A stretch of DNA of 54,209 nucleotides, the filler included, from Cladosporium halotolerans (taxonomy: Eukaryota), in assembly GCF_011745625.1 (NCBI RefSeq). It is 2 parts of 2 records of this genome, joined end to end, with 100 filler letters (N's around TTAATTAATTAA, not from the genome) between each part and the next. Parts side by side here need not be neighbours in the genome. Positions count along the whole stretch, not along the records: positions 1 to 27,303 come from NW_027191533.1; 1 more part is not named here. One strand, written 5' to 3'. Of this stretch, positions 5,479 to 28,703 are shown in pieces. A program made the position numbers and the translations under genes. The first letter of the stretch is position 1. Each line of letters starts with the position of its first letter. Under the pieces are notes generated by a model. That model made no database searches, was not told the DNA's origin, and saw only the letters and a list, made by a program, of their open reading frames with translations.

Positions 5479-8400
5479 ATCCGACTGGCACATTCAAAAT
5501 ACTACAGTACAACGTTCGGAGATCCCGAGATATAGTCATGGCTACTCTGCTACGAGACCCGAGTGTAATGCAGTACGATATCCTCGCCATCCAAGAGCCG
5601 TGGAGAAACCCGTTCTTGTCAATAACACACCACCCCGCTAAGGATCGCTTTCACCTTTGTTACCCGGGAGCTGTGGAAGATGGACCCGCCGGGGTATGCT
5701 TCTTTGTTAACAAACGATTCGACAACACGAAGTGGCAATTCGAATCACATACGAAAGACGTGTGCTCGCTCCATATCTGGGGCGAGGCAGAAATCCAAAC
5801 ACAGGGGCATCTACACGTTCACAACATCTACAACCCTGGCCTAGCATCAGAAAACCGCGAGAGCGTTTTGCCTCTCCTCTGTACGCTTCTCGAGAGATAC
5901 GAGCGGGACGAGCAAGTGGTACTGGGTGACTTCAATCTCCACCATCGCTCGTGGGGCGGAGATCGAGTGGTTCAGGAAGATCAGGAAGCCGAGGAGCTCA
6001 TTGTCATCATGGAGCGCTTCGGCATGACAAACACATTGCAGCAGGGGGTAGTGACGTACGCGGAACGCAATGCCCGAACGACGATCGATTTATGCTTGAT
6101 CACGCTAGGTCTTCTCGACAGGCTCATCAAGAGCGAAGTGGACGAAGAACTCGACCACGACTCGGATCACTTCCCAATTACTATCATGCTCAATCTGAGT
6201 GCTAAGAAGCTGGACAAAGAGCCGAAGAGAAATTGGAAGAGGCTGGACGAGAAGAAGCTTTGTGGAGCGCTCCGACAGACCCTACCGCAACGACAACGAC
6301 CCAGAACCCAGACTGCGCTTGACCGATACACAACGATGATCGTAGAGGCAATCGATAAGGCAGTCGAAAGGGTACTTCCAAGAACACGACTCTCACCAAA
6401 GGCAAGAGAAGGCTGGAATGATGAGTGCACTCGGGTATTGGCAGAGTCGAAGCGACTGCGCCGAGCACACTGTAAAGATCATACGGAGGGAAGCTGGGAA
6501 GCTTATCGTACGGCGAGGAACAGGAAGGCAAGGACCATGAGGAAAGCTTTGCAGACGGCACACAGGGAGAAGGTCGCAGCAGCGTTGGACTCCCTGGAGG
6601 CTCTCTGGAAGGTAGCCAAGTGGGCCAAAGGGAGAGAGACACTGCCACCAAGCGTGACGCCATCGTTGCGGTGTCCACGGACTGGGAATGAGATCACCGA
6701 AGCAAGCGAAAAGGCAGAAGCATTCAGACGCACCTTCTTCCCTAGACCGCCAGCGGCCGATCTAGGAGATTTGCAAGACGCGCAGTACGCCGGACAGATC
6801 AGTCTACCGCCGAAAACCGAAAAGGTGATATTGGAAGCCATTAAATCAACATCGCCTTTAAAAGCCCCCGGTCCAGATGGCTTACCGAACCGTGTTTTAC
6901 AGGCGACGACGGACATCATAGTGAGCCATCTGACAAGCGTCTTTAACCAGAGCTTGCACATTTGCTACTGCCCGGCGCATTTTCGCTCCTCGACTACTGT
7001 GGTACTGCGAAAGCCAGGAAAAGACAACTACACGATACCGAAGGCATATCGTCCGATAGCTTTGTTGAACACGATTGGCAAGATCATGGACGCTGTCATG
7101 GCGCGCAGATTGAGCTACCTTGTGGAGACGTACCATGTCCTCCCAAACACTCACATCGGCGGCCGAAAACTGAGGTCGACCGAGCATGCACTACACATGA
7201 TTATTGAAAGGATCTACAAGGCTTGGAACTCTGGCCGTGGCAAAGTCGCTAGTCTGCTACTTTTGGATGTCTCTGGCGCGTTCGATAAAGTGTCACATGA
7301 AAGACTACTCCACAATCTGCGCACACGCAGGGTAGACGAAAAGATGGTAATCTGGATCACGAGCTTCCTCGGCAAAAGACAAACAAGGATCACAATGGAC
7401 GAGTTTACATCAGAAGAATACGCGATCAACACCGGGATCCCTCAAGGATCTCCGCTGTCTCCTATCCTCTACATCTTCTATAACGCTGGTCTTCTCGAGA
7501 CCTGCGGTCTGGATCAAGACACCACAGCGACAGGATACATTGACGATGCAGCAATACTGGCGTGTGGCGGTACAACCTCGGAGACCTGTGAGAAGCTTAA
7601 GCTGGCACTAGAGAAGGCGCAGCAGTGGGCGTCTACACATGCATCCAAGTTCGCCCCTGATAAGTTCCAGTTGACCCATTTCACCAGATCACGAACACGC
7701 TTTGACATTGAAAAGGAAATCGAGACCGAGTGGGGAAACATCTTGCCAAGCACAACATGCAAATATCTAGGGGTGGTGATGGACCAGAAACTTAACTGGA
7801 AGTCACACATCGAAGAGATTAAAGGAAAGGTGTCAAAGTCGGTCAATGCCCTTGCTTCTCTGGGCAGCTCCACGTGGGGTGTCCGCATGTCCGACATGCG
7901 GAAGATCTACCGTGGGGTGGTGGTGCCGCAGATGATGTATGCATGCTCAGTATGGTCTAATTCGAGAGGAAATGGCACTCCGTACACAGGAAAGACACTT
8001 CAAATCCTACGAAGCCTACAAGCACGAGGAGCCAGAGCCATCACCGGAGCATTCAGAGCCACGTCAAGCGTTGCACTAGATGTTGAAGCACACCTGCTAC
8101 CTGTGGTACAGCAGATCGAGAGGCATAACACGGACACCCTAGGTCGTATCATGACTTGTCAGACGGCACCAGAGCTGGACCACATATCGAGGAATTCAAC
8201 CAGGGGCAGCGCTCGTATGCCCGTCTACACTAGCCCTCTGCGCAATATCAATCGTCGATACAAAAAGACAATCTCAACAAGCGCCTACGCCGTGGAGACT
8301 ATATCACCTTTCATTGCGCCACCGTGGTGGCGAGGACCTGCCACACACATAGATCAGGAAATAGAGGCACGCTCCATACACGATCGTGAGATCAAGAAAG

Positions 8401-9330
8401 AGGGTATCAGTATCTACACCGACGGCAGCTGTATAGGCGGCCATGTGGGCGCAGCGGCGGTGTGCCCTGAGACAAGACAAATGAGGAATGCATTTATGGG
8501 GACAGACGCAACGTCGACAGTCTATGTAGCGGAGCTAGAGGGCATTAAACTCGCGTTGACAATTGCAGATGTAAAGGTTGATGCTGGCGCGTCTCGAAGA
8601 CGCACCGACATTTTCGTTGACAACCAGGCGGCCATCCGCTCCCTGGCTAGACCAGAGGGTAGGTCGGGAGCGTACATCCTGAAGCAAATCGCCGCCAGGG
8701 TTGAGTCGCTCCAAGAGAAGGGACACATAGTAGTAGTACGATGGATAGCGTCGCATGAGGGTATCGAAGGAAATGAAGCCGCAGACATCGCCGCAAAGGA
8801 AGCCACAGGATGGAGAGAGGGCTCAGCATCAGGATCGAGAGCAGACCCACCACCGAAGCTTTATGCACTTCAAACCACGCTCAATATGTGGAGCCGCAAA
8901 GGGGCAGCCAAAATGTGGGAGACCAGCTGGCAGCAGGAAACGAAAGGCAGAACCACGTTCAGGCACACACCAGCACCTTCGAAAAAGGTGCTGCAACTAC
9001 ACGAAGGCCTGACTAAGAGGCAAAGTGCCATTCTGGTGCAGCTAAGGACCGAGAAGATTGGACTAGGGATTTCCTCTTTCGCCGAAAAGTGCCTGACATT
9101 CTGGATCCAATGTGCACCTGTCAAGAAGGCCGCCAGACAGTGCGGCACATTCTCTTCACGTGCCGCAAGCTCAAGGACATCCGGAGACAGGAACTCGACC
9201 ATCTGCCGGAAGGGAATGGCCTTCGAGCAATTCTCAGCAAGCACAAAGTAGCCATCAAAGCCATCAGGTTCATAGAACGCGCGCAGATCCTAGGGCAGAG
9301 CAGGATCGTGGGAGTAGACGAAGCCGAGCA
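5475..9330 (+). CDS. LINE ORF2 (endonuclease-RT-RNase H) with a frameshift near 9068 before the C-terminal CCHC
   Basis: Motifs LQYN, IQEPW, GDFNLH, DSDH, DVSGAFD, PQGSPLSP, YIDD, YTDGS and EGNEAAD. CTCQ...HILFTC is in another frame (ORF 9089-9436). The end coordinate is approximate. Confidence 0.88.
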
Positions 9331-9791
9331 CTGGGGGAAGACTGTAGGTATGCGGATAAAAGAACATAAGGAAAGACTGTCAACACAGCGAGGAGAATAT
9401 GTGAGCCACCGTCTGCGAACGCTGGCAGGCAACTGAAGACGGTGGCTGCAGAGAGAAAGGGAGAGCGTAGGAGGCAGCTGGTACGGTCAGCACTTCGGTG
9501 TCGGACCGGGCGAAGTGGGACGGCCCGTACGGGACGTGTCGGCTGTCTGCCACGCTCTCCTCCACCGGGCATAGCTGCTGGGGAAAGCGGCTGAAAACGA
9601 GTGGGATATAATCAAATCAAATCAACCAATTATAACAAACGAGTACAAAAAGGGTGGTATTCTTTTGCAAAGAAGGGCTGGTGTTCTTTTGCATAGCGAT
9701 ACTGCCACGTTGCAACAGAATAGTAGTACTTGCAGAATTTTCAAAGTCACGTTGGTAATAGGCGTAAGATCGAAGGCATCGCCGGCACGAG

Positions 9792-9894
9792 CCCGGTAAA
9801 CCGGTCACGTGCTGGCTCATAGAGAAGAGATGATCACGTGGTGCAATCTTTTTGTTGCAACCAATAGAAAGCGGGCTTGGCAGACCCTATAAAT
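9792..9894 (+). promoter_or_regulatory. Putative promoter of the DUF202 gene
   Basis: CCGGtaaaCCGG at 9793-9804, TCACGTG at 9805 and 9834, CCAAT at 9861 and TATAAAT at 9888, all within ~300 nt of the ATG. Confidence 0.45.
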
Positions 9895-10090
9895 CTATAG
9901 GTTATAATAGTATAGTCCTTGTGCCTCGGACAATTATTCTTTTATCTTCTGCGTCTTAGAATAACATATCAGATAGTTCTTACATACTTTTCAATTTGTC
10001 GTCTTTCGACTACAGGTTACCAGCAAGCTACGACTCTTCAACCTACGCAATTGTACCCAGACAACTCACGAACTACGCCGCTTTTCGAAA

Positions 10091-10528
10091 ATGATTCGCG
10101 AAATGCTTCTACAGCTCCGTGCTAAGCCTCTGCAAAATACCGGTTCTGTAGCACGCGATCTGCTCGCAAGCGAGAGGACTTTTCTGGCCTGGGCAAGGAG
10201 CGGTCTCGGCTTCATCGCGCTCGGCGTTGCCCTCGAGAAGATGGAAGCCTTTGCTTCGATCTCGCCTCAGTTGCTGCAGCTTGAGAACAAAAATACCAGG
10301 ACGGCCGCCGCTGTTCTTGTCGGGAGTGGCAGTCTTTGTGTCGCGCATGGATCACAGAGATATTTTGCCTCGCTGTCGCTGATGCGACAAGGCCTGTTCC
10401 AGCCCAACATTGTGGGAGTGAGCTTGATGGCGGCGATTTGCATCGGTGTCGCATTTGCAGGAACTCTACTGGTACTGGACAACGAAGGGGGTCGGCGCAA
10501 GGGGAAAGATTTCGGCCTTAGCACGTAG
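10091..10528 (+). CDS. DUF202 (YidH/Vtc1-like) small 3-TM membrane protein
   Basis: Signature NTGSVARDLLASERTFLAWARSGL followed by three hydrophobic segments. Confidence 0.85.
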   Translation: MIREMLLQLRAKPLQNTGSVARDLLASERTFLAWARSGLGFIALGVALEKMEAFASISPQLLQLENKNTRTAAAVLVGSGSLCVAHGSQRYFASLSLMRQGLFQPNIVGVSLMAAICIGVAFAGTLLVLDNEGGRRKGKDFGLST

Positions 10529-11238
10529 ATGGGTCGAGATCAGGGGGACGACAGAAGGAGAGAGGAGGCGAGTGGGAGGGGAGGAGGGGTTAGAGGGGGA
10601 GACAGGGGGTGAGGAAGGAAAGAGGAGGAGGGAAAGGGATAGTATCCATCCCTTCCCCATCCGCATACAAAGGATCAACACCCTCCAGACAAGCTACAAC
10701 TTCCGTCTCTCAGAAGCTTGACTTGCGCACAAGCACTTCCGCTGGAAACCCGGGTACGTCGTGATATGGCTACGCCGGTATCTCGCATCAGTACACAGTG
10801 GTTCCAATGAAAAATGTATCATAACACCAGATCGCATGAGACACGGAATGTGGGCACTCGACGTGAACAGCTGCAAACGCGTCTTGGTCGACACTGACAA
10901 AACGCGCCGGTTGTCCCAATGGCACCAGCCATACATCATTGACGAGTTTACAGCTGATAATAGCGACTGACACGTGGTGTTGCTCCTGGGACGGCCCGCG
11001 CATGCATGAAGCCCAGCTCCTCAGGGTCAGATTTGCTACACATGACAAGATCGATCGTTTGACCGCTTGGCGCTCACTTGAATTTACCGCGTACACATGA
11101 CCTTGTTTCGTCACAAATGTAACCCTATCTAAAACAAACTGCTAAGGGGTTGCCTCATGAGCCAGACAGAGAAACGTAATGGATCCATGTTGGAAGAAAG
11201 AGAAGAACGATGATTTTCCTCACAAGTTACATGCAGAT

Positions 11239-13093
11239 TCACTGTTCCGAAAAGTAGTGGGATACCAGAGGATCGTAAGTCGCGTTCCCGTAAGCCGAAC
11301 CTCCGAATTCAAGATAGCCCGAGGAATATGGCTGCGGGTACCGGTCGGTAATCTGGGAAGCGTTGCCCATTGTCCAAACCGACTGCATACCTGTTCGAAA
11401 GCGACTCACACGTTAGCGGCGACGAAAGCAGACTCGAAAATCGCGAAGCGGCGGAAAACTTACCCATGATCATGTGCTGCAGGCTGTGACAATGCATCAA
11501 GAAGACGCCGGCGTCTTCAACCTTGAGCCTCCAGGCTCTCCACCCGCTGGTGCTGTTGGCCGCACCTATCGACCCGTATCTGTACAGCAAAGTCGTGTCT
11601 CGCTTGATTGGAGTGTACCCTTCCAGCCTCCTTGCATTATTGTCCTCGTCGTAGGTTCCGTTCCCACTGCCAATATCCCATATATGGCCGCCGTGCACGT
11701 GCAGAGGGTGTGTGTGGAATTGCGGATCCGGAATGTTGCTGTTTTCCCAGATTATGTCAATCACCTCGCCAATCTTCGCCGGGAAGATCTGGTTCGCCGG
11801 ATCCCAGCCGCCATTGGCTAAGGCTGCTTCGTAACTTGGCATTGCGGCCTCGCCATGCTTGTAGATGTCGACGAGGTACGGGCTGCGGGGAATGTCTTCG
11901 TTCCAAGAGTTGTCATTGAACGCCCACTTCGCGGTAGTCGAGAAGTCGCTGCCGTTCCAGATCCCTTGCTGGGTGACTTTGATCCTCAGGGTTCTGGTCG
12001 GGGACCGAAGGAAGTCATCAGTCGATGCCAACGGCTGGAGCGAATATTCGAGCCAATCATATACTGTCTCTGGGAGAGAGACAGGCGATTTGGTGGGGAC
12101 GGTCTGAGGGCTCTCCGCGTCGGGGAGATCGTACTGCAGCAATGCATAGGCATACCAATCTTTGCGGCGTTCGCGGTTCTCGAGCCCTATCCAGAACGAG
12201 GACCTGTTCGTCTCGCGCAATTCTACCTCTGACATGGTGCGTAACAATGCGCTGAACCTCTGGCCTGGGGCTACATTGATATGGTCGGTCGAGAATGGTT
12301 GGGAGTACGTGCCGTCGGCCTCGATGATGGTAAGATTGGCGTGCGACTCTATACCCAGGGTCACGATGGTTTTCGCGGTTGCACCGATGAAGCGAAGGCG
12401 GTATGTTTGCCCGGGTCTCACGCGGAGCACGTGTGGGGCGCATGACGAATCTGCTGCGCCGCCCAGTCCCGAGTGTCCTGTTTGTCCGTTGACGACGATC
12501 GAGGTCACTGCGCCGGCTCCATCGAAAGGATCTGCTAGGAGGCCTGAAACAATCTGTTCATCGGTGTGGTTGTAGTAGTCACCCATCACCAAGGTGATAT
12601 CCTCGATGTACTCGTACGGGGGAGTACCACGATCTTCCACGATGAGGGCGCCATGCGCGGTGATAGACTGGTAGCCAACGTGAGAGTGGTAGAAGTAGGT
12701 GCCGGCGTCGCCTATCTCTGGCCTAACCTCGTAGTCGAAGAAGTGCCCAGGGGCGATGGGCCATTGGGAGACTTGCGGTGTACCGTCCGAGAAGGGGGCC
12801 ATGCGTTGTGTCAAGCCGTGCCAATGGATCGTCAAGTTTTGATCGAGGATATCGTTGTACACCCGAATCCAGTGCGTTTTCCCCTCTCGCAAGCGAATCG
12901 TGGGGCCTGGATCAGTGCCATTGACGACGACGGAGGAAGGGCGAGCGTGACAATTGATAGTGAGGTTCTCGGACGTCGCGCGAAGGATGTGATGTGGCGT
13001 AAAATGACGATCGTGTACATGGCGTGCCGCGGAAGACAGGACACCATGAAGGCCGCACGCCAGGAACGGCAGCAGAGATAGGAATGACAACAT
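11239..13093 (-). CDS. Secreted multicopper oxidase, fungal ascorbate-oxidase type; one intron at 11463-11391
   Basis: Signal peptide and all four copper motifs (HWHG, YHSH, HPLHVHG, HCHSLQHMIMGM). The intron GTAAGT...GCTAAC...ACAG restores the C-terminus GMQSVWTMGN...YFSEQ*. Confidence 0.92.
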
Positions 13094-13753
13094 GTGTATA
13101 CGCGCGCGTGTGGGTGGCGTTCAACGACAGTGAGGCCGCGAGGGACGATTGTTCCAAGTTACTTATGGCAGCGAACGGCAATCAACTTCCGAAACCCGCG
13201 CATGATCTTTTCCTTTCCTGTTGCGATCAAACAGCCTCGGAACACAAACATAGACTAAAGTGTCGATCACATGGAAACACTATGCTTGTCCTGCATGATC
13301 AACACGGTAGCGCTGTGCATTTACACGCGAAAGATGCTATGTGACACTGAAAAGGGTCCAGCTGGTCCAGCTTCGCCGGGAGAGTGGGTCAGGTAGTTTC
13401 ACCCGGGGACGCACCGGGCTTCTCCAAGACCCCGACAGTATCCTCGGGCCTCAAGGATCCTTGAGCCAAGTATAATAGTGTGGTAGGCTTCCCTGGGAAA
13501 ACTCCATTGCCGAAGCCAAGCCGCCACTGGCTCGATGTGTTTCTCCTTCGGGGGCCTCCCGCATCCCAGGCAAGAGAACACGGAGTCAAAGAATCGACAC
13601 CAATCACCTGTGAGTTCAAGTCTGCGCGTATGCTTATCCTCATGCCTCAAGCTCGCTCCTTTCATTTCTCCCGAGACAGTCAGGGGACGATGAGACATAG
13701 GTCATGTAGGTACTGACACGTCACAGCGTACGCAAACCCCAAGTGCCCCCATC

Positions 13754-14023
13754 ATGTCCAGCATCAAGGCGAGGGCATATTTCGCGGCACCATTGCGTAT
13801 AGATACGCTGCTCGAATTGGAGCTCCTCATCTTGACTTTCGGCATCAGCATACAAGACGCCATCGCCTTCCCGGACTTCAAACGCTTTGCTTCGAACCAA
13901 ACCGGAAACACGGTCGTTTTGGCCGTCGGTGCACCTGGTCTCGGCGGCGATCAATTCGACCTGCGTAACATTGGCGTCAGCCTGAGCACGTTCATCGCGG
14001 GCGCCACGATGACGGGCCAATTC
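13754..14023 (+). pseudogene. 5' part of a DUF1275 (YoaK-like) membrane protein, truncated by the deletion shared with SQR
   Basis: LLILTFGISIQDAIAFPDFKRFASNQTGNTVVLAVG matches the fungal DUF1275 N-terminus. After MTGQF the reading runs into antisense SQR sequence. Confidence 0.75.
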
Positions 14024-15170
14024 AGGGTGGGCGCCTGGGCCTGCATGGCACTAAGCAGGTTAGACACTACGACTGGCGCCTGGGCGGTGATGGCAGCGGG
14101 TGTTTTAGATGTTGGTAAGCCGGCGGCATCGCCACAATACCACACGTTTGGATATTTGTTGTGTCGAAGGGTGGCGTCATTCACATCTACGAATCCAGCT
14201 TCGTTCGCCAATACGCTCTCCTTGACAAAGGCGTGGGGCCCCATCTTGGGGACGGCATGCAAGAGGTCGAAGTGCCTTCTCACCTCGCCCTTACCGTCGG
14301 CCTGTGCAAGGACGGCGGTATTGCCTTCGATGGCGACCAAGTCATGCTGGAACAAGCCCTCGACGTTCCTTTCCTCGCGGAGTTGGTTCAGCTTCTGGCT
14401 GTGTGCTGGCACTCCGAACATGACGGGCACGGCCGTTGCAAAAGCCATCTGAATGGGGGACGCGGCAGGATGATCCGCGTTGTAAAGTCCGGCTCGCTTC
14501 CACCCGTCCAGTGCAAGCCACATGATCTTCTGCGGGGCTCCGGCACATTTGACAGTGCCGGCAGGGTGAGTGAACAAGGCTTTGCCCTTGGCGAAGTCGG
14601 CGAGGTTACGGGCGGTCTTGTCGCAGATTTCGTAACTGTAGATGGACAAGACGGGAGCGTGAGGGTCAGAGACTGCATCCTGCAATCCGCGGATACTGTT
14701 GAAGTCGACCTTGATGCCAGGACAGACAACGAGATGTTCGTAGCTGATCTGCGCGCCGTTGCTAAGAGAGAGCGAGTGCTGATCAGGGTCGAAATCTCGA
14801 ACCTTGTCGTTGTAAAAGCGGACCTTGGCATCGACCATGTGCGCCAGCTTCTTCTTCAAATCATCTTTGTTCTTGAGGCCACCTCCGACGAGCGTCCAGC
14901 CAGGCTGGTAGTGGTGCACTGGGCCGGGTCGACGAGGGCGATATCATCGTGGGTGAAACGGCCGGAGCGGAGCAACTGGTTGCTGATGGTGATTCCAGCA
15001 CTGCCTCCACCCACAATAACCACCTTGTGGCTGCGTGAACTCGAGACGACGGGTGGCAAGTCGGCGCTGGAGGCGAGCGAGCGCCGTGGTTGGGAATTCA
15101 GGGCGCGAACACCAGAGCGCGCGGCGACGGAACGCGGGAGGTGCGAAAGAGTAGACAGACGAACAGGCAT
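14024..15170 (-). pseudogene. sqr: Mitochondrial-type sulfide:quinone oxidoreductase (SQOR/Hmt2-like), frameshifted and C-terminally truncated
   Basis: Arg/Ser-rich presequence, VIVGGGSAG FAD motif, DPAQ[W]HHYQPGWTLVGGG broken by a 1-nt loss (CAG TG CAC, ~14918), KCAGAPQK and LPTSKT. The YTSCP segment carrying the second catalytic Cys is absent. Confidence 0.9.
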
Positions 15171-15657
15171 GATGAATAGGATAATGTGGCTTGTGGAGAT
15201 ACAGTAGCGTATGGAGATGGGTTGATGGATGGATCAAAGGAATGAGAGGATTCGCATCGTGGCCATCAGCCAAGCCGGGGAGCGAAAGTCAGCATTATGT
15301 ACGAGCGCATCCTTGAATGCACATAACCCCGAATGCCCCAGGAGGCGACATGGCTCGACATGGAATCGTGAGATCACGATAATGCATCGACAATGCAACG
15401 ATAGCAATGAATAAGCAGTCTGCGAAGAAAAAAAGTCCCACACCACCCCTGCTGATAGGTCCCACAGCGCCACCGCTGCCACCATCCACCATCCACAGTG
15501 ATCCTTTAGCCTCGCCGACTTAGCCCGCGCAGGAAAAGGAGAAGGAGGAGGAGAATCATATAGCAGTAGTGAAAATGCCAAGACAATACCAAGGCCAGAG
15601 TCGCCGAAGCAAGGTAGACCTCCCCTTGTCCATAAGCACATCTTCGGACATACTAGA

Positions 15658-15658
<1 letters not shown>

Positions 15659-15693
<35 letters not shown>

Positions 15694-15706
15694 ACCCTGC
15701 CCTGCC
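15659..15706. repeat. (CCTG)n microsatellite in the divergent SQR/PDO1 intergenic region
   Basis: About 8 perfect CCTG units followed by degenerate copies. Confidence 0.9.
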
Positions 15707-15843
15707 TCGAATGGAATATGTTGCCTACATAGCAGTACCCTGCCCTACAAACCTACATAACTACTTATCTACTACCTGCACACACACGTAGCATACATAC
15801 CTAATCTCCCATACTGCTACAGAACCTGCCTACTACTACGGCA

Positions 15844-17030
15844 ATGATCATGACTCTTGCATCCTCCCTCCGCGCCGTCGGAAGTGCGCCTCAACTGTGC
15901 AAGTTGGCGAACCATTCCGTCGCATCGCTGGCCCGCGCCAGAGCCATGTCCACATGCCGTCAAACCTCGCTGTGTCTTGCCACCACAAAGTCCTGCACAA
16001 CCACGATCGCAACAACACTGTGTCGTCTACATCTCTCTCCCCGGCCACGGCGCACTCCGCACCTTCGCCTCGTCAACGCGTGCCCACCACGTAGATCCGC
16101 ATGCGGACGCTGCTACTACTAGCGAAGGCTCGTCTGTCCTCGAGCAGGACCCCACCGTGCACAACTCCTTCGACAAGGTGACCCGGCTCATGGCAGCACG
16201 TGGTAGCCGACCCAGCTACCTCCATCGCAGCCATCATAGATCCCGTCCTGACCTTCGACCCTATGACCGGCAAAATCTCGACAGAGTCCGCCGACGCACT
16301 CATGCAAGTCGTCAACGACAGTGGCTACAAAGTCGACCTGATCCTGGAGACCTACGCCCACGCGGACCACATAACGGCCGCCTCGTATCTCCAGCATCGC
16401 CTCAGCCGGGAACACGGCCGCCGGGCCCGCATCTGCATTGGCAGCCGCATCACACAGGTCCAGAAGATGTTCGGAGAGTGCCACAACATCCCGGCCCAGA
16501 ACTACGAGGGCTCATTCGATCAGCTGTGGGAGGACGACGAAACGTTCAAGATCGGCGATATCACCGCCAAAGCCATCCATCTGCAGGGCCATACCCCCGA
16601 CAACCTCAGCTACAAGATCGGAGGCAACGTGTTTGTCGGCGATTCAGTATTCAACATTGATCTCGGGTCCGCCCGCGCTGACTTCCCAGGCGGCAGCGCA
16701 GAGGCAATTTTTGACTCTGGCCGCAGGCTCTTTGCCCTGCCCGACGATACAAAGATCTGGATCGGCCATGACTATCCGCCCGAGGCACGCGACGAGCCCG
16801 TGCCCTTCATGACGGTCAAGCAGCAGAAGAAAACCAACAAGCACCTCCGCGATGGCACGGCAAAGCAGCAGTTCATAGAGATGCGTCGCACGCGCGACAG
16901 CACCCTAACGTCTCCGAAGCTGCTGTACCAGTTGCTGCAGATGAACATACGAGCCGGTCGACTGCCCGAGCCTACGGCGGCCGGCGAGCGTATGCTTCAG
17001 ATGCCGTTGAAAACCGAGGTTGCCTGGTGA
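15844..17030 (+). pseudogene. Persulfide dioxygenase (metallo-beta-lactamase fold, Blh/ETHE1-like) PDO1, degenerate
   Basis: Three frames are needed: presequence from ATG 15844, then LRTFASS...EQDPTVHNSFDKVT, then an extra C at ~16184 before GSWQHVVADP. The metal motif reads ETYAHADH (first His->Tyr). GHTPD, GDSV, ARADFPGG, GHDYP and NIRAGRLP are present. Confidence 0.85.
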
Positions 17031-17537
17031 TGTGTGGCTGGGGAAGGAAAGGCGTTTGTTGTCAATAATCGCGACACTGAACAGCAATGTCTGTTGGTAT
17101 TCTTTTTTTGATTGCGGGGCGAGCAATGCAAGTCAATCTCCACGCGAGCGACGGTTGGCGATGTTTCTATCTTCAGTATCTCGTGCATTCATTCATCCAT
17201 GGAACCAAGTGCGAACCTGATGATCTGCCTTCCATTTGGCGATTTCGTGCGGAAGCTCCGCGAAACTCTGGTAGGAAAAGAAGTAAGATTGCCACGAGGC
17301 TAAAGAGACTTTTCGCGAGCGCAAGAAAGCACGTGGGAAGCGTTGCTACCGTTTGCGTTTCGTTTGACATACGCGTGGAAAGGCTCAACGAAACCATACT
17401 ACTATTGAACGACCCCTACTCGGAAAAGTAAGAATAGAAAAAAGTAGCAGTCTCGTAAGGAGTGTAGTATCGAAACCACAGTACTTGTTTGGAAAGAGTG
17501 ACAATAAATATATAAGAAAGGGCAAGTAAAATTTCGC

Positions 17538-19708
<2,171 letters not shown>

Positions 19709-20105
19709 CGAGCACCGAAGGCTGATGTAGTGCTAGTGAGAATTGGTGGTATGTTAGGCGCAAAGCACTCGAGACATGCTACTGTATGTACGTTAGCAGT
19801 AAACTCGAACTGTGTTTGCCACGATTAGTCATGTAAATCCGCTTATGGCAGGTCGAGCGACTCCCGCGCTGCCGAACAGGAGCACAGATTGTGTCACGAG
19901 TGTCTGCACTGTAGGCGGGTACCTAACTGCCTACGAGCACTCTTATCGCTGACCTCCACATGATGCCGTTACTGGTCCCCGTAGGTCTTCAACGCTCACT
20001 CCCTCCCTCACCTTCCCACTTCCCCGGCAATCCCGATATCGGCATTTGACGTCATCGTGGCACAACGCAGCACAGCACATCATGTACACTCATCTATCTG
20101 TCTGT

Positions 20106-21388
20106 CTACACATGGCACCAGCGCTTAGCCGCATGCTCGGCGTAACAATCGCCGAACCCTAGCTGAGGGAGCCTCAAGTAGTACTCGCCCTGTGGTGTAG
20201 GTTTCGGCAGGCGTCCTCCGCGCATGTTGATCTGCAGCGAAGCATGCAACAGCTCCGGGTCGCCCAAGCCAGCATCTCGCTCATCACGCATTTGCTGGAA
20301 CGCTTGCTCCGTAACGTGCTCGTGCACATGGCGGTTGCCCTGCCTCTGCTCTTCCACGCTCATGTACGGCACGGGGCATCGACGTTCGGCCGCGCTGGGA
20401 TCATCGTGTCCGGTCCACAGCTTGTGACGGCTCGGAAGCCCGAGTAACTTACGTGTCGACTTGTACAGTGCTTTGGAGCTGCCCCCGGGAAAATCGCAGC
20501 GCGCAGTGCCCAGGTCGGCGTTCAAGACGGAATCGCCACAAAACACATTTTCTTCGAGGCCAAAAGCACTGTCAGCGAGTCCGAGTGAGAGCATCATCAG
20601 TGACGCTTTGGGTTGGGGCCGACCTTACCTCCAATGATGTAACCCACGTGATCTGCCGTGTGGCCGGGAAGGTGCACGATTCTCGCTTCGAGCTCGCCAA
20701 TGGGAAATACCTCGTCGTCTTCCAGAAGTCGATCGAAAGCACTGCTCAACTCGGCGCTTGGGACACCATATTTTGGCCCGAAAAATTGTTGAGCATCGCG
20801 AATTCGGCGGCCGATGCAGACAGCCGGCCTGCACGCCTGGTGTGGCTCGAGAACGCTCTGGAGGTATGAAGCGGCGGTCACATGGTCTGCATGGACATGC
20901 GTCTCTAGGATGTGGACGATTCTGTAACCTTTCTTCTTGACCAGTGATACCAGGCGGTCTGCGGTCTCGGTAGTGACGGTCCGCGTGGCTGCATCAAAGT
21001 CCATGACCGGGTCGATGATGACAGCATCCAAGGTATTGGGGTCCGCGACGATGTATTGCCAGGTGCCTGTTTTGGGGTGATGGACGCTATCGACTGTGGC
21101 CATCGGCGTTGTGATCTCTGTGTGCACGCTGTTGGGGGCGTCAAATACTAGCTCGGCCCTGTCCATGAAGTGTCGATCGAGATAAATCTCGAAACGCAGA
21201 AGGGACGACCATTTACTTTGATCTGTCCAGGGCTGGTGTTGCAAAGACGCTACTCGAGGGCAATAGGCGAGACTGCTTGTGCCGATCTGGCGTTTGCCCA
21301 CAAGTGAAGGCTTTGGATTGGAAAGTAATGGCTTCGGGGATGGTTTCTGCCGAATGGAATTGACACGCAAGAAGCGAAGGCAGCTCAT
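20106..21388 (-). CDS. Persulfide dioxygenase PDO2, apparently intact; one intron at 20628-20552
   Basis: Basic presequence, KTGTWQYIVADP, ILETHVHADH and HLPGHTADH. The intron GTAAGG...GCTGAC...GAAG gives IG-ENVFCGDSV. ARCDFPGGS, GHDDP (usually GHDYP) and LQINMRGGRLP follow. Confidence 0.9.
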
Positions 21389-21561
21389 GTTTGGGATTTT
21401 CGATGGTATCTACAATAATAATGGTGCACGTCTTTGTTGTACATACATGTATGAAAAGGAAAAGGCTGGCAAGGTTGGCGAAGCCCACTCCAGTAGCTAC
21501 TTTCCAGGCACGTATAACATGTACTCGTGGTGGGGTCACGAGCCTCCATGTACCTAGCTAC

Positions 21562-21594
21562 CTTAAGTCGCCGAGATAAAGCATCGGCCTTAAG
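21562..21594. promoter_or_regulatory. Imperfect palindrome upstream of PDO2; candidate Zn2Cys6 site
   Basis: CTTAAGTCGCCGA-gataaagca-TCGGCCTTAAG. An equivalent palindrome lies at 23613-23645 upstream of the RIP'd paralogue. Confidence 0.5.
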
Positions 21595-22015
21595 CTCAGC
21601 ACTTGCGAGGCACCTTATCAGCTCATGCTCATACTTGCTCCTCTTGAGACAGATCTGCATGCTTGTAGATCGTGACTGTACGAGCCCACCCTGAAAGCTT
21701 ACTCTGCTCACGACGAGTCGGACTACACGGAGTCCCCGAGATTCGGTGTTACTGTTTTGCGGGCATCCCGAAGTCACCGAGAGTGGCACATTCCTGTCTG
21801 GTCTCAGGGACTTGAAAATTAATTACATTGCTATGAGACCGGACGCCAGCCTTGATCTAGAGTTTGAGTTTGATAAATCAAAGCATTTGTATACCGTGTC
21901 TCGAACATCCCAGACACCCCCACCTCAACAGCGTCCACACGACAAGCGATTAGGGAATCAGTGCAGCCCGAACATTCGACTACCTAAAAATTTCTATTGA
22001 ACGTTCTTCAACGCC

Positions 22016-22174
22016 ATGGCATCCGCATCAGTAATGACTGCTGTTACGGGTACTGATTTCGGTGCGGCACTCGCGGCTTTTGGCGCAAACATGCCCTTGG
22101 TAAATTATTGATCAGCTCCGTCCAACCAACTTCCACATAGTCCATGTACTTGCGACAGTTGTGGGACCGAGCGC
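22016..22174 (+). pseudogene. Relic first exon of a YeeE/YedE-family sulfur-compound transporter
   Basis: With one frameshift at ~22103 it reads MASASVMTAVTGTDFGAALAAFGANMPLV/IIDQLRPTNFHIVHVLATVVGPSA, then a GT donor. This resembles the GxxFGAAL...PxVIxxQ...FHM start of fungal YeeE/YedE proteins as I recall it. Confidence 0.55.
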
Positions 22175-22215
22175 GTAAATAAGACCGGTGCCATTGCGAT
22201 ACAAGGCGTACATAA

Positions 22216-23313
22216 TTATCTCACCCTCAGATTCCCGACCTCGCCGTAGCCGTTGTAGCAAACTCCTCTCAGATTCCAGCTTGAGGGCTGTGGTTGTGTA
22301 TTTCCTCCTTTGTCTGTGGCCCTGCCGAATACCGCTCGGTCTTCTCCAGGCTCAAGCTTCAGTTTCGTTTCCCATAACTTCCAGGTCCACTTGCTGTCTT
22401 TTTCGTGGGGGAGCAACTGCGCTTCGGACCAATCCTCACCATCGGCGGAGACCTCAACTTTGACGACGGGTCCGTCGTCTCCGCCCGGCAAGGCATACCC
22501 CTTCACCACCGCGTAACCAAGCCGATCTAGTTCAACTGTGCTTCCGCTCTCCGGCGACACCACCACGGAAATTACAGGCATTTCCATCAGAGGCGGTGTG
22601 TCCCGCCAGAACGGCTTTGCGCTCTCCGAGTCAACCACCTCTTCAGGCAACACTTTGTAATCAAAGTGCATGTAATGGTTGCTGCTCATTCCACGCTGCA
22701 CCGTAATGTGATCAAGCCACTTCACCGATCTCGCACCTGCAACTCCCGGTATCAAAGCCCGCACTGGAAATCCATGCTCTCTCGTCAGCGGCTGGCCGTT
22801 CATCATCAAGGCCAATATCACGTCCGCGTCCTCACGCAGGACTCTGCTCATGGGAATCGATGATCCGAACCAGCCTGCGTCTTGGCAAGGCACTGCGTTA
22901 CACGCGAAGGCCACGCTCATGTCGTTGTCTTCGTGACGCACGCCGGCAAATAGCAAGACGTCTCGCACTCTGGGCCCACGCCAGACACAGTTCATCACAG
23001 CGCCAGAACCCCAGTCTATCCCTTGCACTTCCTTGAGCAGAGTCCGCATGGTATGGCGACGATTGCCTGCGCATTGCAGAGCGGAGGTGACCTCGTGTTG
23101 AACAAAGTTATTGTACAGATCGTTTATTGTGAGAGAGAGAGGCTTCAAGACCAGACCATCGATTCGGACGCTATGCGTGGATACGTCAAGCTCGCGAGGA
23201 ATAGAACAGTGGTTGCGGTCATAAGGCTGAATAGGTAGAGATGTAATGAATGAGGATATCAGAGTTTTTGAATCGGGCTCGCGGTTGAGGGGAGATGCCT
23301 CTGGGTCGGGCAT
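22216..23313 (-). CDS. Sulfite oxidase family molybdoenzyme (Moco and dimerisation domains, no cytochrome b5)
   Basis: PLNREP, YDRNH, LQCAGNRR (Mo-ligating Cys), HGFPVRALIPGVAGARSVKWL and WNLRGVCYNGY in an uninterrupted 365-aa ORF. Confidence 0.93.
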   Translation of the reverse strand: MPDPEASPLNREPDSKTLISSFITSLPIQPYDRNHCSIPRELDVSTHSVRIDGLVLKPLSLTINDLYNNFVQHEVTSALQCAGNRRHTMRTLLKEVQGIDWGSGAVMNCVWRGPRVRDVLLFAGVRHEDNDMSVAFACNAVPCQDAGWFGSSIPMSRVLREDADVILALMMNGQPLTREHGFPVRALIPGVAGARSVKWLDHITVQRGMSSNHYMHFDYKVLPEEVVDSESAKPFWRDTPPLMEMPVISVVVSPESGSTVELDRLGYAVVKGYALPGGDDGPVVKVEVSADGEDWSEAQLLPHEKDSKWTWKLWETKLKLEPGEDRAVFGRATDKGGNTQPQPSSWNLRGVCYNGYGEVGNLRVR

Positions 23314-23755
23314 GTTGAGTTGCGGATCTTTTGGTTTATTGATGGTGGGAGGCTTGTCGAAATATAGCTAGCCTCGGTATTCAATGATAGGACCCACTAT
23401 TCATGAGATGGGAGTTGTCACGACAAGTGCAAGACTCGACTAGGGCTATCTTGCCACTCAGGTGTTTCGAGTATAGCTAGATCTAGTCCTGAAGGTTAAG
23501 CTCGCATGAAGTCATAGATATGTCATCACTTCGGATAAATGCCCGAACGCGGCGAAGCTATACTAGTCTTTCTAATATCGACTCTCTACGTTAAATAGTT
23601 TCGGAGTAGAAACCTAAGGTCCCCGATAGATATCGGCGACTTAAGTTTAAGACCTTTCCTTAAGTACGCGTCTCGAACTACTAGGGCCCGCCTTCCTATT
23701 TATAGGCATAACCAAATTATGTATTCTTATTATAGATACTAATAGCTACTTAACT

Positions 23756-24417
23756 ATAAAGTATCCTCGCTTCTTCTATACTAACTTCCCTTAGTAGAAA
23801 TCGCGCCTTAACTTATCTCTTTCTAGCCTAAAGCCTCTACTTATACGTAAACGCTAAATTAGTATAAGTAGCCTCTCTAGTAGTCCTCGACTAAGATCTC
23901 TATTATATTAAACCCGGATAGATTAAAGTAAATCGTTATACCTTTCGTATATTAAGATCTATTCCGATCGACGCTTCTTAGATAGGGCTAAGCTTATCTC
24001 TCTTATACCCCTATTAGTATATATACGGAAATTATAATACTAATAGTTACCGTTAAAAGTATTTATAATCCTAAAACGAGTATATAGTAATATATCGTTA
24101 TAGATCCTAAAATTTTAGATACTATTATTATCGATCCGGTTATAGACTTTAATAGAGCTATATAGACTATTAATATAGATACCGCTAATCGTTTAATATC
24201 CCTAGTTAGGATAAAGGGCTCTAGAATACTAAGTATACTAGAAACGTATATTTATATAGACTATATTACCGCGGCCTTATACGTTAAGAGAGTTTTCGAG
24301 CGAGACTAAGGGTTTAAGCTACCTATTTATATCGGTAGCCGAATTCGCGATTTCTAATAATTTTTCGGGCCTAAATATAGTATTCTACCCGCTATATTAA
24401 GTAGTGCTTTTAATTAG
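23756..24417 (+). pseudogene. RIP-inactivated paralogue of PDO2 (PDO3), 3'-truncated
   Basis: Nearly codon-collinear with PDO2 from ATG->ATA at 23756. CCTAAAACGAGTATATAGTAATATATCGTT = PKTGTWQYIV and CTAGAAACGTATATTTATATAGACTATATTACCGCGGCC = LETHVHADHVTAA; homology ends at SSAFD. Confidence 0.9.
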
Positions 24418-24818
24418 CCGAAATCGGTATAATATATCGTTACGTTATTATACTAGGTAAGTAAGGTAGAGGAATAATAATATCGGGAATTCGGAGATTT
24501 AGAGTTATATTAGCTTAGGGTCTACGTCGAACTATTATTACTATTATAACGTTATTAAGCTACCGGTCCGTAATTTCCTACCCCCTATCGTTATCTTATA
24601 TTTACTTTATATATATCTCGTTATATATCTAACTTATCCCACCTACCTTATTTTACTATAGCGCTTCTAAAACCTAGTATTTTATTAGATAACGTTTTAC
24701 CTTTAGTTCTCTAATTATAATACCTTATAGATTAACCTTAAATTATTCGAATATTAGTAAGCCACGATTACTAAACTAGAATCGTATCGGGATAAGACGT
24801 TAAAGCCCCCTTTTAAAA

Positions 24819-25225
24819 ATATTTCGCGCGATATTCTTATAGCTCTATACGAAACCCTATAGAATACTAGCTCTATAGGACGCGATTTACTTACGGGCGA
24901 ACGAACCTTCCTAGCCTAGGCTAGAAGCGGCCTTAATTTTATCGCTTTCGGGATTACTCTAGAGAAGGTTAAAGCCTTTACTACGATTTTAGCTTAAGAA
25001 CTATAATATTTAAAGCCGCTACCGTACTTATCGGTAGTCGTAGTCTCTATATAGTATACGATACGTAAAAATACTTTAGCTCCCTTTCCTTAATACGGTA
25101 AGGTTTATTCTAGCTAAATATAGCTAAAGTAACTCTAATAGCTACGGCCTATATAAGTATTTTTATAGGAATATTACTAGTACTTAATAGTAATAGAGGT
25201 CGACGTAAGGGTAAAGACCTTAGAA
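24819..25225 (+). pseudogene. RIP-inactivated paralogue of the DUF202 gene
   Basis: CGCGATTTACTTACGGGCGAACGAACCTTCCTAGCCTAGGCTAGAAGCGGCCTT aligns to RDLLASERTFLAWARSGL, and GGTCGACGTAAGGGTAAAGAC to GRRKGKD. Confidence 0.9.
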
Positions 25226-25329
25226 TACGGTACTATTAAAGAGCGGTTCGCCTATAGAGAAATCTAGGCCTCGTACTAATTAAGAGAACGGGAGGAAACT
25301 CTCTTTACCTATCTTAATATTATAGGGGA

Positions 25330-26290
25330 GTAACGTCTATATTAAGGCTCTACGTAGTATTTAATATATTCGATACCGTTAGAGGGAGGTTTACTATCTA
25401 AGTCTACTTAAAAGAGGACGGAGAGCTAAGGCCGTTCTACTATACGCGGGCCTAGCTCGCGTATACTCTTAGGGCTTATTCTTTTATACTAGTATACTAT
25501 ACCGTCGACGCGATAAGTCGTAGATTCTAGCCGCGTAGTAAGGAAGACTAGGTTCTCCCTCCGCTTTAGTACCTTATAGTAGGTAATAATTACTATACGT
25601 AGCGTAGGCTTTAACTTAGCGAGTAGATAGCGTATCCGCTACTCTATAGTATATAGGTCTATCTACTTCTTAAGCGTAGCTAGCTCCGTCGTAAATACTT
25701 ATACTATCTAATTCTCGTCTTACTTAGCTACCTTATAAGCTATAGTAGTACTAAGACTACGATTTACTAGGTCCTTAACGACGTCTAGTATACACGTATT
25801 AAAGTCCGCCTAGGAGTACGATTCTAGATAGGAGATAGTATAGTTCTAATACTACGTCTTCTACGGCTCGCTAACGAGGAATATAATACTATATAGTACC
25901 TTCTCGCTCTCTAACTAGTACGCCTCCGGGGCTAGAGCGAATACTAGGTTTAGGGATTAGATAAGATTATAAGCCTCTTTTAGGGTCTTCTCCTTAAAGG
26001 TCTCCGGCTCCTTTAGGCATAGTCGGCTTACGGGCCCTTATTAACTTACTATCGTAGAGCGCGCGCTAGTTACGATACTTACTTAATCGTCTATATCTAC
26101 CTCCCTAAGGTTTAATCCTACCGGGGTATAACCGGTATTATCGCGTCTCTATAGCGTCGCGAGCTACTATTCTAATAGCGTAATCTCTATTTAGTTCTAA
26201 AGCGCTTTATGCCTACGCCGTAGGCGAGCCGCCTACTCCTTATCTACGTTTTCCTCCTCTTCTAGCCTCCGTTCCTCCAAGTCCCCCTGA
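25330..26290 (-). mobile_element. RIP-mutated Ty3/gypsy-like gag fragment
   Basis: Mentally reverting RIP on the minus strand gives LKEPETFxGKTLKEA...LVFALAP...EDPVNR...Q.ENQTVQAFA.EL..LE...HLLAKL.P.LR, typical of fungal retrotransposon Gag. Confidence 0.6.
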
Positions 26291-26307
26291 TAGGATAGGT
26301 AGTAAAC

Positions 26308-27303
26308 GAGTACTAAATAGTTTGTTTAGTTCGTTCGGACCCCGTTAAATAAACGAATAGATAACTGATTACATAATCGATCGAATGAACAAATATACCT
26401 GTTCGTTCAGCATGTTCAGGGTGTTCAGTGTGATGATAAGACAAACCCAACCCTAACCCTCGATCACCGGGACGGGCATCCCGCGCAAAGCAGCCATGGC
26501 TTGTGAGATCACCCGGGAAAGAATATGCGGGGAACGCGACCGTGTCGCGACTGCCCGCGCGTTAGACCACTTCATGTTCCACAAATTACAGCATGAGCGT
26601 CCAATCCGACTCTCAAGGTTCAACAAACCCGCAGCCAAGCGTTCCACACGGAGCTGAGCAAGATGAAAGTACAATAGCCCGGTGTTCACCAACGATCCTA
26701 TGTCGCGCTAGGTCGCGAGCCACCAATCTTGTGCCGACACCACCAAACAAACAGCCGAAGAGTAGTTGGATCTGGAGGCATGGAGAAGCCGTGACCGATC
26801 TGAAGGACGACTTGAACAAATGGCTCTGCCGAATCTGCTACGAGCAGCCATCGCAAAGCTTGGTCGTGTGCTTGCCATGCGAACCTACGAACCAACCAAT
26901 CCGTCACCTCGTACGATGCCATGGATTCGACAAGTCCGGCGGCAAACATGCGCTGAAGCGCTCGCATGATGGCGCACATCCAGATGGAAATGTGGCGGTC
27001 ATGATGATCAAACGTCAGAGACGTTCGCAAGAGGAGACACTCGATCGCGAGGGCTGGAAAAGGACGTACGTGGAATGGCTTGTGTGTAGCAATCAGTCGC
27101 TACGCCATGCTTCGGGAGACAAACTCAAGGCATTGATTTCGTCAGAAATCCGATAGTGGAGCCTCTGGTCCCGCAGAGTCACCACGCGCCGCGAGACTGG
27201 ATCCTCGATGCTTTCACTGCCGCGAAACCCGTGGTCATCGAGTCTCTGCAGATGGCAAGAAGCACAATAACTGTCAGTTTCGATCACTGGCTAGCGGATA
27301 ACG
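26308..27303 (+). mobile_element. hAT transposon 5' part (BED finger to first catalytic Asp), cut by an assembly gap
   Basis: Subterminal GTTC/TGTTCAG repeats at 26320-26430. SSWIWRHG...WLCRIC...HLVRCH; frameshift near 27150; TITVSFDHW. Confidence 0.8.
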
Positions 27304-27725: not shown

Positions 27726-28703
27726 CCCCATTTTTTCACATATGAGACTGCACATAACCCTGCCGCAAATTCTCGTCGCCGTCTTCCGGACCCTTTTGCA
27801 ACACCGTTGACAAGAACGTATGCTGAAATTCGCCCAAAACCAGGAACGCCCGGGTTCGCGGAAGCCGGCGGGCGTCAGCAAGTCTCCTGTAGGCCACATG
27901 AGACGTCGCGTTTGGCTTTGGACAACCAACGAAACTCTTATCATTCCCGCGGCTGATATCCGAGACGAAGCCTCGGCTTGATGGCGCGCAGCAGAGGACG
28001 TTGGCGTCCGCTAGAATTCTAGTTCGTCCCCAGATTTGCCCTGCGAGCCGGATTCGCTTTAGACGTGTGTTTCCACCGTTGGCGTCCCAATGACGAAATT
28101 TGCAGGGTAGGGGCTTTTTGAAAGAGGCGTGCAAACCGCTGGGGGCCGCTCTGCACCCGTCAGTGCCGCCCTGCCAATTTATTTCGACGATTTCTGCTTC
28201 TCCTCAAACGCTGTTGATATAGTCACTGCAGCATCATAGCCAAATGGCCCGGCACCAAGGGTTACCACACATATAAAGACCCAGTTCCACACTCGTCACG
28301 CTGTCTGCAGCTCTACCAACTCTCTCACACCTCCGCGTACCATACGACATCTTCGGCCTGCCTCTCAGTAGCGCCCAGTAGCGAAGAGCTTTGCGCGGCG
28401 CGAGCGCCGTCGATCGCCGTCCTCTCGAGTACCATCACGTAGCGTTTCAACACGGGCACTTTTGCACGTAACGGATGCCAACAAGCAATCGTGCTGCTTA
28501 GGCTACGCAGCAAGCCCGCTCCTAATCGCATTTCACGCGTGGCGGAGGGATCCGGGTGCAGTTCAGACCTCATCCTCCACGTGGAAGCGTCTGAGCAGCA
28601 ACCCGTTCTTGGACATACGCCTTATTCGTGCACGACGTCGGTAGCCTGGAAGAGTTGTACCGCGACTGCGGTTAGAGGGTCGATAAGCGACCCGGTCAAT
28701 AGC

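Follow-up and report, generated by a model that had tools for sequence, protein, structure and literature searches.

Animals use a type I persulfide dioxygenase (PDO; ETHE1) and a sulfite oxidase that contains a cytochrome b5 domain, and the genes are not known to be linked. Heterotrophic Proteobacteria carry pdo-sqr (sqr-pdo) operons in which a type II PDO is combined with a type II sulfide:quinone oxidoreductase (SQR), according to excerpts of two reports (Xia et al. 2017, PMC5702731; PMC9163753), and excerpts of the first state that type II PDOs were limited to Proteobacteria among the prokaryotic genomes surveyed (Xia et al. 2017, PMC5702731). The literature searched contained no account of a fungal cluster of SQR and PDO, and since most subscription journals lay outside the search, novelty is unproven; a preprint on U. 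maydis mentioned SQR only as hypothetical. Here, we analysed a stretch of 54,209 nucleotides from Cladosporium halotolerans (assembly GCF_011745625.1), called the window in its whole length, using Pfam and PDB sequence searches and self-tblastn. Its part from 10.1 to 25.2 kb contains SQR, three PDO copies, a heme-less sulfite oxidase, a Zn2Cys6 factor, DUF202 and DUF1275. With a probability of about 0.8, we see here a neighbourhood of genes for sulfur oxidation from a Dothideomycete-like fungus, decaying in a region where transposable elements abound and repeat-induced point mutation (RIP) has acted. At its core, an SQR of the mitochondrial type and a type II (proteobacterial-type) PDO would stand head to head, a pair kept by many Pezizomycotina. 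Both core members appear to be pseudogenes in the lineage of the window, SQR by a 1-nt and a 3′ deletion and PDO1 by two frameshifts and the loss of a metal ligand, and a duplicated PDO-DUF202 segment beside the sulfite oxidase gene seems to have been destroyed by RIP. PDO2, the heme-less sulfite oxidase, DUF202a and an unrelated multicopper oxidase (MCO) would remain without visible damage. The features are as follows.

10091-10528, + strand: DUF202a (Pfam DUF202, E=6.6e-13).
11309-13093, - strand: MCO (Pfam Cu-oxidase, Cu-oxidase_2 and Cu-oxidase_3).
13754-14020, + strand: DUF1275 fragment (Pfam DUF1275).
15173-14017, - strand: SQR, putative pseudogene (human SQOR, E=1e-54).
15174-15843: common divergent intergenic region of SQR and PDO1, with a (GGCA)n-type microsatellite at about 15653-15717.
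15844-17030, + strand: PDO1, type II, putative pseudogene (9g8t, E=1e-65; 4ysk, E=1e-62).
19690-17538, - strand: Zn2Cys6 factor (Pfam Zn_clus, E=3.6e-11; Fungal_trans, E=3.3e-14).
21388-20106, - strand: PDO2, type II, two exons with a 77-nt intron at 20552-20628.
23313-22216, - strand: sulfite oxidase of the molybdenum cofactor (Moco) type without b5 domain (chicken sulfite oxidase, E=2e-66).
23353-24414, + strand: PDO3, RIP-mutated copy including an upstream part (coding homology 23921-24414).
24447-25224, + strand: DUF202b, RIP-mutated copy (tblastn coding match 24812-25221).
23370-26300: RIP-affected AT-rich block (GC 0.32-0.44).

Three PDO copies, an SQR and a sulfite oxidase inside 15 kb are not a chance pattern, and two of the copies in the region are demonstrable duplicates of segments elsewhere in it. 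An earlier note on this DNA had assigned the enzymes to the route from SQR through PDO to sulfite oxidase, which was supported by the family homologies found with Pfam, PDB and tblastn, and the divergent pairs MCO/DUF1275, SQR/PDO1 and sulfite oxidase/PDO3 were present as it had claimed. The window PDOs matched the type II structures 9g8t, 4ysk and 4efz at E=1e-56 to 1e-65, and ETHE1 (4chl) only at E=1.7e-8. The closest named relatives of SQR, PDO1 and the sulfite oxidase were Dothideomycetes, namely Neophaeotheca, Zalaria and Hortaea (71-76%), Cladosporium halotolerans (75%) and Salinomyces (82%).

The SQR gene retains VVIVGGGSAG of the FAD-binding GxGxxG fold and VKCAGAPQK with the first catalytic cysteine (human Cys201); in an alignment of 30 fungal SQRs the columns K132, C133, A134, G135, P137, Q138 and K139 were invariant, the window sequence included. 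The orthologs P0001, P0003, P0004 and P0006 each aligned as two tblastn high-scoring segment pairs in different frames, which met at 14916 within the conserved motif DPA(E/Q)WHHYQPGW. The gene reads ...GCCCAGTG-CACCAC... at this point, and one G of the tryptophan codon is missing (DPAQ-W-HHYQPGW); DPAQW is a natural variant in the SQR of other fungi. Homology then stops at 14017 (...APTLN), and residues ~387-458 of the four orthologs gave no homologous tblastn match in the 54-kb window (chance-level only, E 1.7-4.6). The missing end corresponds to the last ~70 codons (YNGYTSCPLLTEYGK... onward), with the YxGYTSCPL catalytic cysteine region and the membrane helix, and the lost columns are nearly invariant among the 30 fungal SQRs. 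YTSCPL of P0001 aligned with the human YTSCPL, YDGYTSCPLVTGY. In human SQOR, Ser378 and Cys379 lie in YTSCPL, Cys201-S-S-S-Cys379 is the catalytic trisulfide and the C-terminal helix is the membrane anchor, as given in an excerpt of PMC12589024. The stump still matched human SQOR at E=1e-54, compared with E=1e-93 for the ortholog P0001. Judged from its reading frame, SQR is a pseudogene that is frameshifted and 3′-truncated and lacks the second catalytic cysteine; with these lesions the locus cannot encode the conversion of H2S to persulfide.

The lost 3′ end of SQR adjoins that of another gene. The DUF1275 fragment corresponds to profile positions 3-93 of 193, the N-terminal half only, and its homology ends where the SQR homology on the opposite strand ends. 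In the simplest reading, one deletion between the convergent SQR and DUF1275 genes would have taken both 3′ ends. The DUF1275 stump continues as an open frame of 232 codons antisense to SQR (13754-14452), and this chimeric DUF1275/antisense-SQR open reading frame (ORF) could be reported as a protein by a gene caller.

For PDO1, a 396-aa ortholog-like relative (P0123), which is 85% identical over the catalytic part, was placed on the window in three frames, with residues 1-64 at 15844-16032, 67-115 at 16037-16183 and 116-396 at 16185-17027. The frameshifts therefore lie at ~16033-16036 and ~16184; at the second, the window reads ACCCGGC and FDKVT-GSW needs one C fewer. The motif ETYAHADH of PDO1 has a tyrosine aligned with His71 of the P. 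aeruginosa PDO (9g8t), whose metal ligands are His71, His146 and Asp163 according to an excerpt of PMC12856154. Equivalents of the arginines that bind glutathione were retained in the alignment to 9g8t. The gene caller's product for PDO1 (P0121) starts at an internal methionine, with the first strands of the fold missing. PDO1 deviates at 8/94 highly conserved columns, where the leave-one-out median is 1. From these sequence features PDO1 is a pseudogene as well.

To compare the lesions with other DNA, Logan contigs (not raw reads) of four sequencing runs, X1, X2, X3 and X6, were aligned over 9900-18900; stretches without contig cover from X6 or X3 are not evidence of absence. In X1 all sampled words were present, and its two contigs were identical to the window. 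X2 and X3 stem from different studies and are listed under different organism codes. The DUF1275|SQR junction was bridged by record 6 of X2 (13328-14583) and record 15 of X3 (13916-14665), and one X2 contig continued with other sequence beyond 14023; the contigs of X6 do not reach the junction. The deletion at 14916 was common to X2 and X3, where no insertion was found, and record 8 of X2 (15774-16247) spanned the two PDO1 sites and aligned to the window there with no gap. An X3 contig end has FDKVT|GSW in frame. Since the lesions recur in contigs of X1, X2 and X3, they are real. One form in X3 joins 13595 to 17500, skipping 3904 nt and with them the DUF1275, SQR and PDO1 remnants, and other X3 contigs still cover these remnants; either the region is polymorphic for presence and absence, or the sample contains two genomes. 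The remaining indels in X2, X3 and X6 were all intergenic, and the Logan contigs break at the microsatellite 15653-15717. An X2 contig that ends at 14917 with an intact DPAQW was not counted as a paralog; it resembles the SQR of other fungi and maybe belongs to another organism. The SQR and PDO1 lesions are real, recent and polymorphic.

Linkage in other genomes was studied in 80 metagenome loci retrieved with the alignment of the 30 fungal SQRs. Loci with an SQR at least 48% identical were classified as fungal-like (32 loci), and 20 of them had at least 1500 nt upstream of SQR. A divergent PDO was found upstream of SQR in 12 of these 20 (11/19 distinct, L006 being equal to L007) and a co-directional PDO in none. 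AA9, GH62, HET, Mgm101 and copper-fist genes adjoin the fungal-like loci, which confirms that they are fungal. Among bacterial-like loci with at least 1000 nt upstream, the PDO was directly upstream of SQR on the same strand in 25/34, the form known from the pdo-sqr operon. Consecutive SQR and PDO locus tags were found in Fusarium lateritium, F. oxysporum f. sp. vasinfectum and Cladophialophora carrionii, and in 10 named species both genes were on contigs of equal listed size, assumed to be one and the same. In Pezizomycotina the head-to-head pair of SQR and type II PDO is a conserved unit. Of the gene set of the earlier note, SQR and PDO were linked in other fungi (12/20 loci and three named genomes), and in the loci sampled three other genes were not linked to SQR: sulfite oxidase stood near it in 0/15 fungal-like loci whose flank reached 5 kb or more and in 0/80 loci overall, MCO and DUF1275 occurred in 0/80, and the named sulfite oxidase matches shared no contig, judged by listed size, with the SQR and PDO lists.

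Other partners recurred. L006/L007 and L014 have a DUF202 gene downstream of the PDO and in the same orientation, and a Zn2Cys6 factor related to that of the window was downstream of SQR in L008, with its Zn-cluster part in L002. Both L011 and L020, which have a divergent PDO too, encode a SulP-family sulfate permease (at 5025-6524 and 7101-8579, respectively) co-directional with SQR and ~1.6 kb downstream of it; L011 also has a mitochondrial carrier gene. Locus L008 (1-14990) contains a Pyr_redox_2/Pyr_redox_dim-rhodanese (CoA-disulfide-reductase-rhodanese) fusion at 2-1642, an aminotransferase piece, DUF1264, an alternative oxidase (6210-7092), PDO (9237-8327), SQR (10013-10909) and the Zn2Cys6 factor (12123-13625), and it looks like a sulfide-response cluster including a sulfide-insensitive terminal oxidase. 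In a quick tree the fungal PDOs split from the sampled bacterial-like PDOs at a branch labelled 100, and PDO1 paired with P0123 at one labelled 99; since the tree is unrooted, no statement on origin is made from it. The fungal type II PDOs (P0122-P0240) occur in a short form of ~290-300 aa and a long form of ~380-410 aa with an N-terminal extension, with both forms in some species, e.g. Fusarium lateritium and Aureobasidium; these may be cytosolic and mitochondrial versions.

PDO2 differs from PDO1 in what it has kept. Its GT..AG intron (20552-20628, 77 nt) restores colinearity with the relatives, the metal triad is present (ETHVHADH, PGHT and FCGD align with His71, His146 and Asp163 of 9g8t), and the equivalents of Arg174, Arg244 and Arg247 are kept in GTARCDFPGG and QMRDERDA, with the alignment extending to chain residue 288 of 296. 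It is somewhat probable that PDO2 is enzymatically active. DUF202a is an intact ORF of 145 aa for a small membrane protein, with no indel in X2, X3 and X6.

The RIP-mutated members of both families are adjacent. PDO3 is a copy of the first exon of PDO2 and ~450 bp upstream of it; tblastn against PDO2 gave 49% with in-frame stops, and the metal-ligand site reads ETYIYIDY. The purine/pyrimidine alignment of the two scored 238-560, against a shuffle maximum of 145, and 165/256 mismatches were C>T or G>A, so that the claim of a third, RIP-mutated PDO copy was upheld, together with the RIP indices. This alignment ran on to 25062, but 24415-24830 alone scored as noise (52-54), and the second half of PDO3 was therefore treated as lost. 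DUF202b, which the earlier note had missed, is a RIP-mutated copy of DUF202a and ~345 bp upstream of it (tblastn 53-58%; purine/pyrimidine alignment of 9746-10516 with 24447-25224), with 90/162 mismatches C>T or G>A. RIP is indicated by TpA/ApT above 0.89 and (CpA+TpG)/(ApC+GpT) below 0.75. Over 24001-26000 the values were 1.55 and 2.32 for the former and 0.03 and 0.01 for the latter, and the rest of the region, PDO2 and DUF202a included, had normal indices. The mutation is one-sided, with a single member of each pair affected (20106-21837 and 9746-10516 normal; 23353-25224 mutated). The strongly RIP-mutated tail at 25225-26400 resembled no other part of the window at the protein or DNA level and may be transposon remains. 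As the order PDO followed by DUF202 also occurs in L006/L007 and L014, the arrangement of sulfite oxidase divergent from PDO and DUF202 may be the older one here.

The sulfite oxidase is an intact ORF of 365 aa with Moco and dimerisation domains and no cytochrome b5 domain (Pfam Oxidored_molyb, E=2.6e-52; Mo-co_dimer, E=9.6e-19). It matched PDB 2a9d/1sox at E~1e-66 and 1ogp at E=2e-60, LQCAGNRR with the Mo-ligand cysteine motif CAGNRR aligned with the chicken enzyme, and 3/114 conserved columns deviated. Its homologs follow species taxonomy, as a housekeeping ortholog would. The Zn2Cys6 factor has a complete six-cysteine Zn cluster and no visible lesion, and contains a CAA/ACA-type microsatellite at 18950-19380 (polyQ, or polyT/polyN in other frames); its Zn-cluster and Fungal_trans parts are in different frames on either side of an N gap. 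The MCO is a single long ORF with a likely GTAAGT intron at the 3′ end, and is probably an unrelated neighbour. A YeeE/YedE relic, which had been reported beside PDO2, was not recovered: 104 intergenic ORF pieces of at least 35 aa gave no Sulf_transp (PF04143) match at E<=0.1, and an aimed scan of 21410-22246 gave no match among 19 stop-free pieces at E<=10.

From established enzymology, the locus would encode at most the conversion of glutathione persulfide to sulfite by PDO2 and of sulfite to sulfate by the sulfite oxidase. We infer that these two enzymes are active, act in sequence and are regulated by the Zn2Cys6 factor. The earlier note went further and saw a full working pathway, that is, an intact co-regulated cluster for the whole route from H2S through persulfide and sulfite to sulfate under the Zn2Cys6 factor. 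Three enzyme families and a factor do lie within 15 kb in several divergent pairs, the SQR/PDO linkage is conserved and a Zn2Cys6 factor stands beside SQR in L008 and L002, but the frameshifted SQR without the region equivalent to Cys379 and the PDO1 with two frameshifts and His71 replaced by tyrosine, as seen in X1, X2 and X3, speak against it, as does the sulfite oxidase linked in 0/15 loci. The promoters do not favour it either: among six intergenic regions no 9- or 10-mer was common, so these words were not above shuffles, no CGG..CCG site was common, and the four common 8-mers compare with a shuffle mean of 1.8 (maximum 6). We give this whole-route explanation almost no credence. It is also highly improbable that errors of assembly or sequencing produced the frameshifts and the junction and that the organism itself has intact genes. 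Short runs of G or C hold two of the three single-base lesions, there are N gaps in the scaffold and X1 may share reads with the assembly; however, X2 and X3 carry the 14916 deletion and the junction, X2 has no gap at the PDO1 sites, long ORFs elsewhere in the window run through without interruption (LINE 1261 aa, MCO 603 aa, sulfite oxidase 383 aa), and ~70 missing SQR codons cannot be explained as an indel error.

A third explanation is that only the SQR/PDO pair is a functional unit, and that sulfite oxidase, PDO2, the factor, MCO and DUF1275 came to lie nearby by duplication and transposon shuffling and are uncoupled from it. The absence of sulfite oxidase, MCO and DUF1275 from all 80 loci agrees with this, and so do a sulfite oxidase that tracks taxonomy and shares no contig with the SQR/PDO lists and a region rich in transposable elements and duplications. 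Yet the PDO product is the substrate of sulfite oxidase by established enzymology, sulfite oxidase and PDO3 (the PDO2 copy) are on a common divergent promoter region, the adjacency of PDO and DUF202 recurs in L006/L007 and L014, and a given gene is expected within 10 kb of a given locus of a ~30-Mb genome with a chance of less than 1 in 1000 a priori. We regard this uncoupled neighbourhood as unlikely, and prefer the decaying sulfur-oxidation neighbourhood described above.

Several observations weigh against this preferred reading. The SQR stump deviates at only 4/126 conserved columns (leave-one-out median 2.5), so its inactivation would be recent. In X6, a food metagenome, one contig (depth 3.5) has an extra base at 14916, and thus an unshifted SQR allele exists in a close relative. 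X1 may be the source sample of the window itself, which leaves X2 and X3 as the independent runs, both in contigs. The first PDO1 frameshift was judged against one relative (P0123) and lies within a poorly conserved presequence. PDO2 has an end branch of 1.43 in the tree, against a median of 0.31, and deviates at 8/96 conserved columns, the same rate as the dead PDO1, and it may itself be drifting; conserved-column deviation, used as a pseudogene test, did not separate PDO1 (8/94) from PDO2 (8/96). A 100-N assembly gap (19141-19240) hides part of the reading frame of the Zn2Cys6 factor. An intact second SQR or PDO may also be present elsewhere in the genome, in which case the locus would be a redundant copy and the pathway would be kept.

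The surroundings of the locus are rich in transposons, as hAT, Tc5/pogo and chromodomain remnants were also found in the window with Pfam, in addition to long interspersed nuclear elements (LINE), one of which is given here.

5466-9251, + strand: LINE-type retrotransposon ORF (Pfam RVT_1, Exo_endo_phos_2 and RNase_H).

This ORF is unbroken over 1261 aa with endonuclease, reverse transcriptase and RNase H domains, and further copies at 2-3367, 47147-51406 and 53544-54209 bring the total in the window to four, which suggests a recently active LINE family untouched by RIP. Ordinary genes stand amid the transposons, namely those of an arrestin-domain protein (28443-30143), a response-regulator receiver fragment (38447-38809) and a short-chain dehydrogenase (42515-43342).

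Beyond the window, we tentatively suggest, at somewhat less than even odds, that an old head-to-head Pezizomycotina module of SQOR-type SQR and type II PDO recruits lineage-specific partners, and that the lineage of the window loses SQR, the entry step, and keeps a sub-cluster of PDO2, sulfite oxidase and regulator with which it would dispose of persulfide and sulfite. The partners would be an alternative oxidase, a rhodanese fusion and a Zn2Cys6 factor in L008, SulP in L011 and L020, DUF202 in L006 and L014, and sulfite oxidase with an extra PDO here. Such a module would be the eukaryotic counterpart of the bacterial pdo-sqr operon, and it seems absent from the papers searched. If this general pattern is true, filamentous fungi oxidise sulfide via a bacterial-type PDO and not via the ETHE1 type of animals and plants, the SQR/PDO pair is the seed of small lineage-specific sulfide-response clusters, and it offers a handle on the tolerance of fungi to H2S, polysulfides and sulfur fungicides. 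The window itself is a lesson in that domain-level homology overstated function. What the locus preserves is a record of genes lost under pressure from transposons and RIP. The polymorphism among strains, with X6 unshifted at 14916 and the 3.9-kb deletion form in X3, could be used to ask what SQR loss costs in sulfide tolerance.

Compared with the systems known, the duplicates here resemble other duplicated fungal genes hit by RIP in their CpA/TpG depletion and their C>T/G>A bias (PDO2/PDO3 and DUF202a/DUF202b), and differ in that a single copy per pair is affected. The sulfite oxidase aligns over residues 7-356, through the Moco and dimerisation domains, with the plant peroxisomal (1ogp) and chicken (1sox, 2a9d) enzymes; being without a b5 heme domain, it is like the plant enzyme and unlike the chicken enzyme. 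With the animal mitochondrial unit of SQOR, ETHE1, rhodanese and sulfite oxidase, the locus shares the SQR of the human SQOR type and the sulfide-to-sulfate chemistry, whereas the PDO of the window is of type II, its sulfite oxidase lacks b5, its genes are neighbours and its SQR appears broken. With the bacterial pdo-sqr operon, the fungal pair has in common that the same two enzyme families are adjacent; unlike the operon, the fungal genes are head to head and have introns and N-terminal extensions, and the pair in the window appears to be dead.

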